DNA from: an uncultured bacterium
Lineage (GTDB): Bacteria; Verrucomicrobiota; Kiritimatiellia; RFP12; UBA1067
Length of the DNA: 64,000 nucleotides
NCBI GenBank assembly: GCA_902779565.1
Contig: CACZCD010000006.1
Location: forward strand, 11,413 to 75,412
Reading direction: 5' to 3'
Made by a program: the position numbers and the translations under genes. This document shows, one piece after another, positions 29,471 to 41,436 of this stretch. The notes under the pieces were generated by a model. The model did no database searches. It was not told the DNA's origin and worked only from the letters and a program-made list of their open reading frames with translations. Numbering within the stretch: the stretch's first letter is position 1; every line of letters starts with the position of its first letter.

Positions 29471-30679
29471 ATGGAAACAGCAGAGATTATTCACGATTTG
29501 GCGGTCAAGGCGCGTGCGGCGGCCGCCAAAATGCGGGCTTTTTCGACGGATCGCAAGAACGAGGCGCTCCTTGCTATCGCCGAGGCGCTTGAGGCGATGA
29601 AACCGCAGATTGACGCCGCGAACGCCGAGGATGTGGCGGCGGCGAAGGAAAACGGCCTTGCTCCGTCCATGGTGGATCGTCTTACGCTCACCGAGGCGCG
29701 GTTCAAATCCATGGTGGACGGTGTGCGGCATGTGGCGACGTTGCCGGATCCCGTGGACGAGGTCATTTGGGAGCGGGACCGTCCGAGCGGCATCCACATC
29801 ACGAAGGTGCGGCAGCCGTTCGGCGTGATCGCCGTTGTGTTCGAATCGCGTCCGAACGTGTTTGTCGATACGGCGGCGCTGTGCCTCAAGACGTCGAACG
29901 CGGTCATTCTGCGCGGCGGCAAGGAGGCGATCCGCTCGAACAAGGCGCTCAATGCGGCGGTGCGTGCAGGACTTGAGAAGGCCGGGCTGCCGATGGATGC
30001 GGTGCAGCTGGTGGAGACGACGGATCATGCGGGCGTGACGGCGCTCGTGCGTTCGGTGGGGCTTATCGATATCGCGATCCCGCGCGGCGGCGAGCGGCTC
30101 ATCCGCGCGATGTGCGAGGCGGCGCTCATCCCCGTGCTGAAGCACTACAACGGCATCTGCCATGTGTATGTGGACGACAAGGCCGATCTCGGCATGGCGC
30201 TTTCGATTCTCGACAACGCCAAGACGCAGCGCCCCGGCACGTGCAACGCGGCCGAGTGCCTGCTTGTGCAGAAGGATCTTGCGCCGCTGTTCCTCCCGAT
30301 GGTGAAGGCGTGGGCGGCGGACAAGGGTGTGACGCTCCATGAGGATGGCGTAGGGGTGGAGTATCTCTCGCTCGACCTGAATGTGGCGATCGTCAAGGAT
30401 GTGGACGAGGCGATCGCGTTCATCAACGAGCACGGGTCGCACCATTCGGACTGCATCGTCACGAACGACAAGGCGCGGGCGGAGTCGTTCCTGCACAACG
30501 TCGATTCGGCGGCGGTCTATTGGAACGCCTCGACGCGCTTCACGGACGGCGCGGAGTTCGGCATGGGCGCGGAGATCGGCATCTCCACCGACAAGCTCCA
30601 TGCGCGCGGTCCGATGGGTCTTGAGGAGCTTACGACCTACAAGTACACGGTCACTGGCGACGGTGCCCTTCGGAAATGA
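29471..30679 (+). CDS. proA: gamma-glutamyl phosphate reductase
   Basis: ALDH-fold ProA pattern along the whole length. Confidence 0.9.
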   Translation: METAEIIHDLAVKARAAAAKMRAFSTDRKNEALLAIAEALEAMKPQIDAANAEDVAAAKENGLAPSMVDRLTLTEARFKSMVDGVRHVATLPDPVDEVIWERDRPSGIHITKVRQPFGVIAVVFESRPNVFVDTAALCLKTSNAVILRGGKEAIRSNKALNAAVRAGLEKAGLPMDAVQLVETTDHAGVTALVRSVGLIDIAIPRGGERLIRAMCEAALIPVLKHYNGICHVYVDDKADLGMALSILDNAKTQRPGTCNAAECLLVQKDLAPLFLPMVKAWAADKGVTLHEDGVGVEYLSLDLNVAIVKDVDEAIAFINEHGSHHSDCIVTNDKARAESFLHNVDSAAVYWNASTRFTDGAEFGMGAEIGISTDKLHARGPMGLEELTTYKYTVTGDGALRK

Positions 30680-31389
30680 TTCCAACCGCAGAACAGCTCG
30701 ACGAATGGTTCAAGGCCGGGACGATGAAGCGTCTCGGCATGGGATCGCGCCGTGCCTGCTATGCCATCCCCGATACGAATCTGTGCGTGAAATGCTATCG
30801 GAGTGACGAGGAGATTACGGAAGGCCGATATCCGGGGCGTGCGCCACTGATGCCACTTGCGCCGACTGTTGTCCGTGAAATCAAGAAATACCGTTTTGAT
30901 GAACGGCGCAATACCTGTTGCAGTGAGTATCGCTATTGGAAGACCCTCGCGCAATGCCTCCCCTCCGATTTGATGTCGGTTTTCCCAACGATGGTCTGTT
31001 GTCTGGATGTTCCTTTTCGGGGGTGGTGCATCGTCGAGAACATCATCGCAAATGATGACGGAAGCGATGCCCGGAATTTTCATGAGGTCTTCAAATCGGC
31101 TGAGCCATCCGAGCGATGTCGTCTCCTTGGGGCTTTTGACTGGCTCATTGATCAATTGATCGACCATGCCGTGCGCTTTTATGATCCGCAGAATGTTCTT
31201 GTGACGAAGGGGAAAGATGGTTCCTTCCATCTGCGGATTGCGGATTTTGAGCCGGCAGAACGGACGTTCGTGTCAATCGGCAACCTTTCGCCGTTTTTTG
31301 TGCGTCGAAAGGTCAGGCGGCGGTTCGCCCGCTATCAGAGAATGTTTGGCATCGGGAGCGTTGCCGGTGGCTCATATGAAGGGAAATGA
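30676..31389 (+). CDS. YrbL / PhoP-regulatory-network family protein (kinase-like fold)
   Basis: LGMGSRRACYAIPDTNLCVKCY matches the YrbL N-terminal signature LGTGRHRKCYAHPED..CIKIVY; PQNVLV motif. Confidence 0.65.
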   Translation: MIPTAEQLDEWFKAGTMKRLGMGSRRACYAIPDTNLCVKCYRSDEEITEGRYPGRAPLMPLAPTVVREIKKYRFDERRNTCCSEYRYWKTLAQCLPSDLMSVFPTMVCCLDVPFRGWCIVENIIANDDGSDARNFHEVFKSAEPSERCRLLGAFDWLIDQLIDHAVRFYDPQNVLVTKGKDGSFHLRIADFEPAERTFVSIGNLSPFFVRRKVRRRFARYQRMFGIGSVAGGSYEGK

Positions 31390-31398
31390 GGGGACCGC

Positions 31399-39451: not shown

Positions 39452-39465
39452 GCGCCCGTAAAAAC

Positions 39466-41436
39466 ATGGCTAAGATCGAGTACAGAAAAGAGTTCTTTGA
39501 TCGGGAATATTCCGGGTGGGAATCCTACCGGCGCGTCTGGAAATATGCCCGCAAATATCGTTTCCGGCTGTTGATCGGAATCGTCTGCGGCATGTTGACG
39601 GCTGGCACGCTCGTGCCGTTTTTCCAGATTGTCCAGCCGACCTTGCAGCATGTGGAGTCGCACGATTCGGCGATAGACAACACGCCGCCCGCTATCGCCA
39701 AGGAGTCGACGGAAAAGACATCAAGTCTCAAAGAAAAGCCTAAAAACGCTTTTGAGCGGCAGATCGAGAAGAACTCCAAGCTGCCGTCATGGTATCCGGC
39801 GGTTGAGAAGTTTGCCGCAAAGTGCGGCATCCGTCTTCAGGACGAGAAGGGCGGAATGGGCGGCGCTCTTGCCCTTATCGTGTGCGTGATTGTGCCGCTT
39901 GTCGCCATCCTGCGGTTGGGGCTCATCTTCCTCAACCATTACTGTCTCAGCTGGTCCGGTGCCCATGCCGTGGCCGATCTGCGCATGGAGATGCTGGAAC
40001 ATGTCCAGCGGCAGTCCCTGCAGTTTTTCGGTCGTGTGGACGTGGGGCAGATCATGTCGCGCATATCAAACGACCCGAACCAGATCCAGACGATCATGAC
40101 CACGATCCTGACGGAGGTTGCTCTTGCGCCGTTCGAGATATTCGTTGCATTCGGTTTCATCATCTGGTTCGCCATCACCAACCACATGACTTCCACGCTG
40201 ATGCTCATTTGCATCGGGTTCCCGCTTTTTGCGCTGCCGATCCAGTCGTTGGGGCGCCGGATCAAGAAGTGGGCCCGCAAAACCCTTGAGCGTAATTCGT
40301 TGATCAGTGCGAAGATACATGAGATCCTCACCTGCATCCGCGTGGTGAAGAGTTGCCATACCGAAGAGTTCGAGAATCGGCGATACGCTTCGACCAACCG
40401 GTATCTGCTCAAATCCACAATGCGGGGCTTGCGCGTCGGTCTCATGGTGGGGCCTACGGTGGAGACCATCGGCATCCTGCTCATCTGCGCGTTTGTCGTC
40501 TGGTGCTTCTTGATGGGGGTGAAGATATCGGACGTGGTGCCGATGCTCGCGCCCCTGCTCATCATCTACAAACCGGTCAAGCAGCTTTCCAAGCTGCAGG
40601 TCCAGGTGGAGAACTCCCTTGCGGCACTGAACCGTATCTACTCCCTTCTGGATCTTCACATGGAACTGCCCGAAAAAGCGGATGCCCAAGGCAAGCCGAC
40701 GTTCGACGACCGGATCGCGCTTTCGGATGTGTCGTTCCGCTACGATACGGCGGAGCACGATGCCGTGTCGCACGTCACATTTGAGATCCCCCGCGGAAAG
40801 ATGGTGGCGATCGTGGGCGGCACCGGAAGCGGCAAGACCACGGTCAGCGGACTGATCGCGAGATTCTACGATCCACGCGATGGCGTTGTGACGATGGACG
40901 GCATCGACCTCCGCGATCTGAAGGTGGACGATCTCCGCAAGCTTGTGGGGACCGTGATGCAGGAGACGCTGCTCTTCAACGACACGATCGAGGAGAACAT
41001 CCGTTACGGCACGCCGGACGCCACGCATGAGCAGGTTGTGGCCGCGGCGAAGCTCGCGAACGCGCACGACTTCATCATGTCGCAGCCGGAAGGCTATGAT
41101 CGCATCGTCGGCGAGAAGGGCTTCGCGCTCTCGGGCGGGGAACGCCAGCGCATCGCCATCGCCCGCGCGATCCTTAAGAACCCGCCGATTCTCATTCTGG
41201 ATGAGGCCACCTCTGCGCTCGACACCGTGACCGAGCGGCTTGTGCAGGAGGCGCTCGACAATCTGATGCAGAACCGTACCACGTTCGCCATCGCCCATCG
41301 TCTTTCTACGATTCGCAATGCGGATCTCATCCTCGTGATGCAGGAGGGGCGCATTGTGGAGCGCGGCACGCACGACGAGCTGTATGCCGCCGGTGGCGTG
41401 TATCGCAAGCTCTGCGACATGCAGCACCAGTCTTGA
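39466..41436 (+). CDS. ABC transporter permease/ATPase, MsbA-like exporter
   Basis: 6-TM domain plus Walker A GGTGSGKTT, LSGGERQR signature, Walker B ILILDEATSALD; N-terminal extension of about 100 aa. Confidence 0.9.
   Translation: MAKIEYRKEFFDREYSGWESYRRVWKYARKYRFRLLIGIVCGMLTAGTLVPFFQIVQPTLQHVESHDSAIDNTPPAIAKESTEKTSSLKEKPKNAFERQIEKNSKLPSWYPAVEKFAAKCGIRLQDEKGGMGGALALIVCVIVPLVAILRLGLIFLNHYCLSWSGAHAVADLRMEMLEHVQRQSLQFFGRVDVGQIMSRISNDPNQIQTIMTTILTEVALAPFEIFVAFGFIIWFAITNHMTSTLMLICIGFPLFALPIQSLGRRIKKWARKTLERNSLISAKIHEILTCIRVVKSCHTEEFENRRYASTNRYLLKSTMRGLRVGLMVGPTVETIGILLICAFVVWCFLMGVKISDVVPMLAPLLIIYKPVKQLSKLQVQVENSLAALNRIYSLLDLHMELPEKADAQGKPTFDDRIALSDVSFRYDTAEHDAVSHVTFEIPRGKMVAIVGGTGSGKTTVSGLIARFYDPRDGVVTMDGIDLRDLKVDDLRKLVGTVMQETLLFNDTIEENIRYGTPDATHEQVVAAAKLANAHDFIMSQPEGYDRIVGEKGFALSGGERQRIAIARAILKNPPILILDEATSALDTVTERLVQEALDNLMQNRTTFAIAHRLSTIRNADLILVMQEGRIVERGTHDELYAAGGVYRKLCDMQHQS

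Follow-up and report, generated by a model that had tools for sequence, protein, structure and literature searches.

A packed array of eleven genes (positions 30676-41436, + strand) in a 64,000-nucleotide stretch of contig CACZCD010000006.1 from an uncultured bacterium of the Kiritimatiellia (the whole stretch is hereafter called the window) brings together two glycosyltransferases, several modifying enzymes, a predicted CDP-alditol-forming enzyme pair, a TagF-type phosphotransferase, and an MsbA-like ABC exporter. We propose, with moderate confidence, that this array is a variable lipopolysaccharide (LPS)-core or lipooligosaccharide (LOS)-type locus that has acquired a cassette for CDP-alditol synthesis and TagF-type transfer together with pyruvyl and acetyl decoration. 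The observations behind this proposal are the family membership and catalytic motifs of the enzymes, the packing and lowered GC content of their genes, the conservation pattern of the exporter and of the genes around it, and the statistics of the exporter's neighborhood in related bacteria. All eleven open reading frames (ORFs) were confirmed at the coordinates below and form a single co-directional array (aa, amino acids; GC3, GC content at third codon positions).

30676..31389, +, YrbL-like kinase-fold protein, 237 aa, candidate core-sugar kinase (PF10707)
31399..32313, +, GT8 retaining glycosyltransferase, 304 aa, DxD motif "DVD" (PF01501, 145 bits)
32310..32870, +, hexapeptide-repeat O-acetyltransferase (AcT), 186 aa (PF00132, 47 bits; WbbJ/WcaF-like by NCBIfam, below cut-offs)
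32905..34098, +, polysaccharide pyruvyl transferase (PyrT), 397 aa (PF04230, PS_pyruv_trans, 56 bits; GC3, 0.58)
34095..35243, +, TagF-family CDP-alditol:acceptor alditol-phosphotransferase, 382 aa, catalytic domain only (PF04464)
35259..36008, +, IspD/TarI-family cytidylyltransferase, 249 aa (PF01128, 144 bits; alternative GTG start at 35250)
35986..37050, +, extended short-chain dehydrogenase/reductase (SDR), 354 aa, predicted CDP-ketose reductase yielding CDP-alditol (PF01370, 130 bits)
37040..37804, +, NodB-type polysaccharide deacetylase, 254 aa (PF01522, Polysacc_deac_1, 96 bits; TFDDG and HTAGH motifs)
37840..38460, +, small polytopic membrane protein (Memb206), 206 aa, at least four hydrophobic segments
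38441..39451, +, GT4 (GT-B) glycosyltransferase, 336 aa (PF13692, PF00534; Glyco_trans_1_4, 50 bits)
39466..41436, +, MsbA-like ABC half-transporter, 656 aa (ABC_membrane and ABC_tran)
41437..41710, no strand, intergenic gap of 274 bp at the end of the array, with a weak terminator-like hairpin at 41640-41656

Pfam matches were judged by gathering score, NCBIfam models by their equivalog cut-offs, and structural relatives by PDB sequence matches. The families that a first-pass annotation of this DNA had named in the packed run all pass the Pfam gathering score, the YrbL-PhoP_reg match marginally (34 bits; cut-off, 31.5), and the family-level functions of the cluster genes are close to certain. 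The 206-aa membrane protein has no Pfam or NCBIfam match, and its homolog search yielded two clusters. For the GT8 protein, the top NCBIfam model is an LPS 3-alpha-galactosyltransferase, at a score far under the cut-off. Since a hydropathy scan found no hydrophobic segment in any cluster enzyme, all of these enzymes appear to be cytoplasmic.

The start of the YrbL-like gene overlaps the stop of proA (29432-30679) by 4 bp, and overlaps of the same length join GT8 to AcT and PyrT to TagF. Further overlaps are found between IspD and SDR (23 bp), SDR and NodB (11 bp), and Memb206 and GT4 (20 bp); the other junctions are gaps of 9 to 35 bp, among them the 14-bp gap between GT4 and the co-directional ABC gene. 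An Rfam scan of the whole window gave no regulatory RNA matches, and a consensus promoter/terminator scan stayed near shuffle expectation, with the weak hairpin after the ABC gene as its sole yield.

Predicted synthesis and transfer of an alditol phosphate

The cytidylyltransferase and the adjacent SDR had been annotated at first pass as a split Bcs1-like CDP-ribitol synthase, a reading that the reductase does not bear out. Its best PDB matches are 8v4g and 8v4h (E 1e-40), which correspond to HS5.17 from Campylobacter jejuni, an NADPH-dependent CDP-6-D-fructose reductase making CDP-6-D-glucitol (PMC10918830). The two proteins are 30% identical over 329 aa (the sequences of HS5.17 and of HS5.18, encoded with it, were taken from the supplement of PMC10918830). 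The YPESK (YxxxK) motif of the window SDR aligns with Y167-PLA-K171 of HS5.17 and the arginine of its VRNGY motif with R164; about 31 residues precede the GxxGxxG motif, and the phmmer alignment to 8v4g begins at residue 10. In the Pfam table of this protein, PF01370, PF16363, and related families are listed, and PF00106 and the ADH_zinc families are absent from the matches. The C-terminal reductase of Bcs1 is a classical SDR, and TarJ is of the zinc-ADH type. In the Bcs1 and TarIJ route, ribulose-5-phosphate is reduced ahead of the cytidylyl transfer (PMC10918830).

The IspD-like protein lies about equally far from the TarI structures (4jis, E 4e-37) and from HS5.18 (32% identity), and it scores 162.5 bits with the NCBIfam model for ribitol-5-phosphate cytidylyltransferase (NF001183; cut-off, 166). 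Adjacent PF01128 and PF01370 genes have been used as the criterion for pairs that follow a CDP-ketose route, and about 400 such pairs are known across more than 200 organisms (PMC10918830). The window holds an adjacent pair of this kind, with its genes overlapping. In HS5.18/HS5.17 and Mnp1/Mnp2, cytidylyl transfer to a ketose phosphate precedes reduction (PMC10918830), and the window pair probably uses the same CDP-ketose route, with the reductase acting on the cytidylylated ketose. The identity of 30 to 32% to the C. jejuni proteins is about what separates HS5.17 from Mnp2, the enzyme for CDP-mannitol (just 30% identical to each other; PMC10918830), and therefore the alditol cannot be inferred from the sequence: hexitols and arabinitol are candidates as well as ribitol. 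This corrects a misannotation in which an IspD homolog and an "epimerase" are read as enzymes of the methylerythritol phosphate (MEP) pathway or of ribitol metabolism; the CDP-ketose reductase route is the better reading, and the two proteins are candidate enzymes for CDP-alditol synthesis.

Directly upstream of this pair lies the gene for the TagF-like transferase. The protein spans positions 11 to 366 of the 367 positions of Glyphos_transf (PF04464) with 217.6 bits (cut-off, 22.1), so that the TagF-like assignment made at first pass, like the IspD-like one (PF01128, 144 bits), holds up in profile searches. Staphylococcus epidermidis TagF (3l7i) matches at E 1e-34, with the window protein aligning to its residues 350-714, and the catalytic histidines H444 and H584 of TagF (PMC5974469) align with H120 (in TWHGS) and H249 (in FRPH). 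A further match is Cps3D (8qoy; E 2e-19). No equivalog cut-off is reached, with 106 against 550 bits for TarF, 59 against 1000 for TarL, and 52 against 500 for TarB. Because the 382-aa protein consists of the catalytic domain alone, it is as likely to add one or a few alditol-phosphate units as to build a polymer. Relatives of the protein fall into just five clusters (at 90%) with at least 78% identity, the next best match being at 52%. In one metagenomic ORF of 623 aa, P0120, the C-terminal portion of a reductase of the HS5.17 type, 45% identical to the window SDR, is fused to a Glyphos_transf domain, a putative Rosetta-stone link that ties the reductase to the TagF-type transferase.

A conserved exporter in a changing gene neighborhood

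The ABC exporter finds its top NCBIfam model in MsbA_lipidA (TIGR02203), which covers residues 20-655 with 460 bits (cut-off, 602). It remains below every NCBIfam equivalog cut-off, e.g., 383 against 867 for PRK11176, and scores 169 bits with PglK; Sav1866 and MsbA are the leading half-transporter structures. Basic residues are part of the interior and exterior LPS-binding sites of Escherichia coli MsbA (PMC10945598). In an alignment of the exporter with this protein (34% identity; the E. coli sequence was checked against 3B5W), R78, K299, and R188 of MsbA are kept as R150, K372, and R265, and K243 corresponds to another basic residue, R320. Full-length homologs with 75 to 84% identity make up more than 120 clusters. 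The exporter is thus a conserved, MsbA-like native anchor gene of the lineage that was not brought in with the cluster, and is presumed to be the flippase of a finished lipid-linked glycan.

To what extent the genes beside the exporter vary is seen in 83 loci, 80 of them metagenomic and fetched by exporter orthologs (63 to 100% identity) and three obtained by look-up. An LpxL-type lipid A acyltransferase gene stands directly beside the exporter in 11 of the 83 loci and about 1.8 kb off in one more; Lip_A_acyltrans (PF03279) was confirmed for locus L096 and for 6 upstream neighbors. The commonest neighbor is a GT4 gene (33 loci), along with genes for pyruvyl transferases (15), GT8 (11), YrbL-like and Memb206-like proteins (7 each), and NodB (3), and TagF, IspD, and SDR are limited to the window's own species. 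The Memb206 homologs that adjoin the ABC gene in 7 loci are 31 to 39% identical to the window protein; NodB homologs (50 to 73%) lie near it in L138 and L176. YrbL-like homologs adjoin proA in L011 (45%) and L091 (68%) and stand beside ABC or GT8 genes in 7 further loci. A Pfam scan of the DNA just upstream of the exporter in 68 loci, which took the longest ORF of either strand, identified 20 GT4, 6 Lip_A_acyltrans, 6 protein kinase, 5 DUF1796, 3 GT8, and 2 GT11 neighbors. This is the pattern of a variable LPS outer-core/LOS-type locus, in which a conserved flippase is accompanied by fast-changing cytoplasmic transferases and decorating enzymes.

Turnover is also evident from the proA side. 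In a ProA-based scan of species-representative GTDB genomes, the best matches (88% identity and below) came from metagenome-assembled genomes labeled Kiritimatiellia/Kiritimatiellae or, inconsistently, Lentisphaeraceae. Gene order near proA is little conserved among them, and only L011 is informative on presence or absence. The cluster is not universal in the lineage: in a species with 88%-identical ProA, proA and YrbL are followed by RuvB, without the cluster at the site. A sister species (L091; ProA, 94.5% identical) keeps the array from proA-YrbL to the ABC gene at 63 to 87% identity, in the order proA-YrbL-GT8-AcT-[two unannotated ORFs]-TagF-IspD-SDR-NodB-GT4-ABC. Its GT8 is 83% identical to that of the window; the two unannotated ORFs take the place of the pyruvyl transferase, the 206-aa membrane protein is missing, and metK forms the right flank, where the window has an aro operon. 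An identical TagF-like protein and the same cluster occur on further contigs, apparently from ruminant and other gut metagenomes. Compared with window positions 32377-42369, contigs L004 and L098 show at least 99% nucleotide identity at 33.9-40.9 kb (TagF to ABC) and 92 to 95% on both sides, a difference that indicates recombination and, by this sequence comparison, a probable mosaic among strains of the species.

Parts of the array recur in other bacteria. In an organism with 68% GC from the same kind of sample (L092, 8096-12132), the GT8 and AcT proteins are 80% identical to those of the window; behind their genes lie a CTP_transf gene of the TagD type and a TagF gene (50% identical), in what looks like a glycerol-phosphate cassette placed in the same slot. 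TagF, IspD, and SDR are found in the same order, at 40 to 49% identity, in two organisms with 30% GC (L178, 9019-17265; L093, 8166-15503), both with the arrangement LicD-TagF-IspD-SDR-pyruvyl transferase-Acyl_transf_3; in L178, a gene for an ABC_membrane exporter is present as well. The pyruvyl transferase and ABC genes of these loci are not orthologous to those of the window, and the triad alone is common to them. TagF, IspD, and SDR thus appear to behave as a portable triad.

In composition, the cluster differs from its surroundings much as had been estimated by eye at first pass, when a GC deficit of 5-8% was noted. The GC content is 57.2% at 31399-41436 and 62.4% in the window outside 24518-41436, and mean GC3 is 0.670 in 10 cluster genes and 0.796 (standard deviation, 0.062) in 25 others (Mann-Whitney p = 1e-4). 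GC3 is 0.59 in the YrbL-like gene and reaches its lowest value within the cluster, 0.56, in the gene for the 206-aa membrane protein; that of the ABC gene is native (0.78), its reduced total GC stemming from codon positions 1 and 2. A recent mobile island was considered and rejected: the window contains no tRNA, no flanking repeat was found at the block borders, and no integrase lies at the block, the sole integrase-family ORF of the window (1855-3720, - strand) being 27 kb away. The low GC content and the gene order are moreover common to L091, and therefore the acquisition was not recent.

The flanks of the array have features of their own. The GC minimum of the window (51%; GC3, 0.53) is below the glycan cluster and falls in the gene at 24518-27976 (+ strand), which encodes a 1152-aa protein with a Ser/Thr protein kinase domain and RHS/YD-type repeats; the lowest-GC 10-kb stretch of the window begins at 24401. 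Between a GluQRS-like gene and proA, a 116-aa ORF (28990-29340, - strand) with a CBM48/AMPK1_CBM glycogen-binding module is encoded, which is also called on related contigs. After the intergenic gap follows the native-GC aro operon, with DAHP synthase at 41711, pheA, aroB, aroA, aroC, and more. Three imperfect 36-nucleotide direct repeats (GGAAGAnnTnATGGGAAAACAGG...) lie at 42750-42846 between DAHP synthase and pheA and have no Rfam match; the corresponding gap of a related contig has a predicted ORF of 69 aa. An AAA-ATPase gene of low GC content (49488-50594, + strand; 54.7%; GC3, 0.61) comes after the aro operon. This gene and the integrase-family ORF may be other acquired DNA.

Acceptor and route of export

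The host is a diderm, as the first-pass annotation had suggested: the window encodes LpxI (17701-18534), a membrane fusion protein with an AcrB-type resistance-nodulation-division (RND) pump (18663-22825), and a LolA-like protein (11337-11945), and relatives of the organism carry LptF/G and LpxA. In such a host, an LPS-core or LOS-type locus could operate as follows. The IspD-like enzyme would couple CMP to a ketose phosphate, and the HS5.17-like SDR would convert the resulting CDP-ketose by reduction into the CDP derivative of an alditol, which could be glucitol, mannitol, arabinitol, or ribitol. On the cytoplasmic side of the inner membrane, GT8 and GT4 would lengthen a lipid-linked acceptor, most probably lipid A-core, and the TagF-type domain would move the alditol phosphate from the CDP-alditol to this glycan. 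The pyruvyl transferase, the O-acetyltransferase, the NodB deacetylase, and possibly the YrbL-like kinase would add decoration, after which the MsbA-like exporter would flip the finished molecule and the Lpt pathway would bring it to the outer membrane. In this scheme, we infer the substrates, the order of the steps, the lipid A-core acceptor, and export by the ABC protein; lipid A-core as the acceptor is its weakest link.

Several points weigh against this scheme. The cluster contains no 3-deoxy-D-manno-octulosonic acid (Kdo) transferase, heptosyltransferase, or other unambiguous core gene, and LpxL genes adjoin the exporter in a minority of the loci (11 to 12 of 83). The exporter, besides falling short of the MsbA equivalog cut-off (460 against 602 bits), has lost two basic residues of MsbA (R148, now L220, and R238, now L315). 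Relative to E. coli MsbA, it carries a hydrophilic insert of about 70 aa (residues ~57-127) between transmembrane segments TM1 and TM2, which should be the first periplasmic loop and, since the orthologs are 648 to 680 aa long, is lineage-wide. Characterized TagF-family enzymes use undecaprenyl- (polyprenyl-) or glycolipid-linked acceptors, and we know of none that acts on lipid A-core. By sequence, a lipid A-core flippase is not distinguishable from one of the PglK/Wzk type, and with 64 kb in view, a second MsbA paralog, WaaL, or an initiating transferase may lie elsewhere in the genome. The main rival reading, less likely than ours, is that the genes make an undecaprenyl-linked glycan (O-antigen-, capsule-, or teichoic-acid-like), built in the cytoplasm on undecaprenyl pyrophosphate by an initiator encoded elsewhere, flipped by the ABC protein in the manner of PglK/Wzk, and then ligated to lipid A-core or protein, or released. 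The acceptors of the TagF family speak for this, as does the exporter type shared with PglK; the extra TM1-TM2 segment lies at the position of the external helix of PglK, which Perez et al. reportedly found in 2015 to be functionally important. In the unrelated 30%-GC organism L178, a gene for an ABC_membrane-type exporter also comes after the TagF-IspD-SDR-pyruvyl transferase array, but this exporter is just 32% identical to that of the window, a generic ABC similarity. Moreover, the MsbA model outscores that of PglK by 460 to 169 bits, orthologs of the exporter adjoin lipid A late acyltransferase genes, and the exporter's conservation throughout the lineage does not depend on which glycan genes adjoin it. 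Among the cluster genes and larger window ORFs scanned, neither an initiating phosphoglycosyl transferase nor a ligase (WaaL) was found, nor was Wzx, Wzy, Wzm/Wzt, Kps, or Wza.

A horizontally acquired capsule of poly(ribitol/glycerol phosphate), similar to wall teichoic acid (WTA) or of the Haemophilus type, with a split Bcs1-like synthase and a dedicated exporter, is unlikely. Strong TagF and IspD family matches argue for it, as do an IspD-like protein that comes near the ribitol-5-phosphate cytidylyltransferase cut-off and matches TarI structures, GC and GC3 values under those of the flanks, and the absence of the cluster from its site in one close species. On the other hand, the reductase is of the HS5.17/Mnp2 type and not that of Bcs1 or TarJ, the exporter is a native gene of the lineage, no integrase, tRNA, insertion sequence element, or flanking repeat bounds the block, and the low GC content shared with the sister species dates the acquisition as not recent. 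The scanned ORFs also lack KpsMT/DE/CS, TarGH, Wzm-Wzt, the WTA primers TagO/A/B, LCP proteins, and the multidomain architecture with tetratricopeptide repeats (TPR) or other accessory domains of the polymerases. Of the polyol-phosphate surface polymer proposed at first pass, a surface-glycan cluster able to add polyol phosphate is thus retained, and the teichoic-acid-like polymer is not. Least probable of all is an incidental adjacency, in which the glycan genes would serve a different acceptor (e.g., a glycolipid or protein) and the ABC protein would be an unrelated lipid or drug exporter. The failure of the ABC protein to reach any NCBIfam equivalog cut-off would allow for this, and about one-third of the related loci have nonglycan genes immediately upstream of the exporter; the co-directional 14-bp junction with GT4 argues against it, as do the glycan or lipid A genes, which are the immediate neighbors in the majority of related loci although their identity turns over completely.

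In a bolder version of the LPS-core reading, an alditol-phosphate chain, which may be pyruvylated and acetylated, would be built by the stand-alone TagF-family enzyme directly on lipid A-core at the cytoplasmic face, with export by a lineage-specific MsbA whose first periplasmic loop is enlarged. We consider this a long shot. If it were true, no undecaprenyl carrier, O-antigen ligase, or Wzx/Wzy/Wzm-Wzt system would be needed, and an undescribed route to long, anionic, teichoic-acid-like LPS would exist in uncultured gut Kiritimatiellia.

Comparison with known systems

The closest parallels to the enzyme pair are HS5.18/HS5.17 of C. jejuni HS:5 (CDP-6-D-glucitol) and Mnp1/Mnp2 of Streptococcus pneumoniae 35A (CDP-mannitol), which likewise combine PF01128 with PF01370 (PMC10918830). 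The window SDR shares with HS5.17 the YxxxK motif and an N-terminal extension ahead of the Rossmann motif, and in both cases the product would feed alditol phosphate into the surface glycan of a diderm. Unlike HS5.18/HS5.17, to which it is 30 to 32% identical, the window pair is part of a triad with a stand-alone TagF-type transferase and occurs in a PVC bacterium. For that transferase, the nearest counterparts in diderms are capsule polymerases of Gram-negative pathogens, including Cps1B, Cps3D, Cps7D, and Bcs3 (PMC5974469, PMC10299916), which have in common with it the PF04464 domain, the two catalytic histidines, a CDP-polyol donor, and a diderm glycan. These, however, are multidomain proteins with glycosyltransferase, TagF-like, and TPR parts, encoded in kps-type group 2 loci with export by KpsMT, whereas the window has a 382-aa single-domain enzyme, separate glycosyltransferases, and no kps genes; indeed, the group 2 capsule families KpsM/T, KpsD/E, and KpsC/S are absent from the Pfam matches of the cluster and the larger window ORFs. 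With the WTA systems of Gram-positive bacteria, the cluster shares the TagF catalytic domain (3l7i) and a TarI-like cytidylyltransferase (4jis), but the window has no TarJ-type reductase, primers, TarGH-type ABC2 exporter, or LCP ligase, and its host has LPS and outer-membrane markers.

As a locus, the array resembles the LOS and LPS outer-core loci of Neisseria, Haemophilus, and Campylobacter, where MsbA serves for export and phospho-substituents of the LicD type are added in the cytoplasm. As there, genes for GT8, GT4, a kinase-fold protein, a deacetylase, and a flippase are packed together without Wzx, Wzy, or Wzm-Wzt, gene content is hypervariable between close relatives, and orthologs of the exporter occur next to LpxL-type genes. 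The differences are that the window cluster contains neither a Kdo transferase nor a heptosyltransferase and that its exporter has the lineage-specific insert.

Gut and rumen Kiritimatiellia are uncultured, and we know of no LPS chemistry on record for them. The locus gives a first view, at the level of genes, of how envelope glycans vary in these bacteria, in which a hypervariable glycosylation locus appears to be maintained in association with an MsbA-like exporter. Into this locus, one species seems to have plugged a portable three-gene alditol-phosphate cassette that it has in common with distant low-GC bacteria, and diversity of surface antigens and phage receptors at the strain level is predicted. 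Polyol-phosphate chemistry, which the first-pass annotation had tied to Gram-positive bacteria and Haemophilus, is documented in several Gram-negative bacteria (PMC5974469, PMC10918830): alditol phosphates are known from the LPS of Fusobacterium nucleatum and Vibrio parahaemolyticus (PMC10918830), and TagF-like enzymes have been published from Gram-negative capsule loci (PMC5974469). The occurrence of polyol phosphates in the LPS and capsules of Gram-negative bacteria is thus established, and no current view is overturned; what is new is the host lineage, the variable locus anchored by msbA, and its cassette-like exchange.

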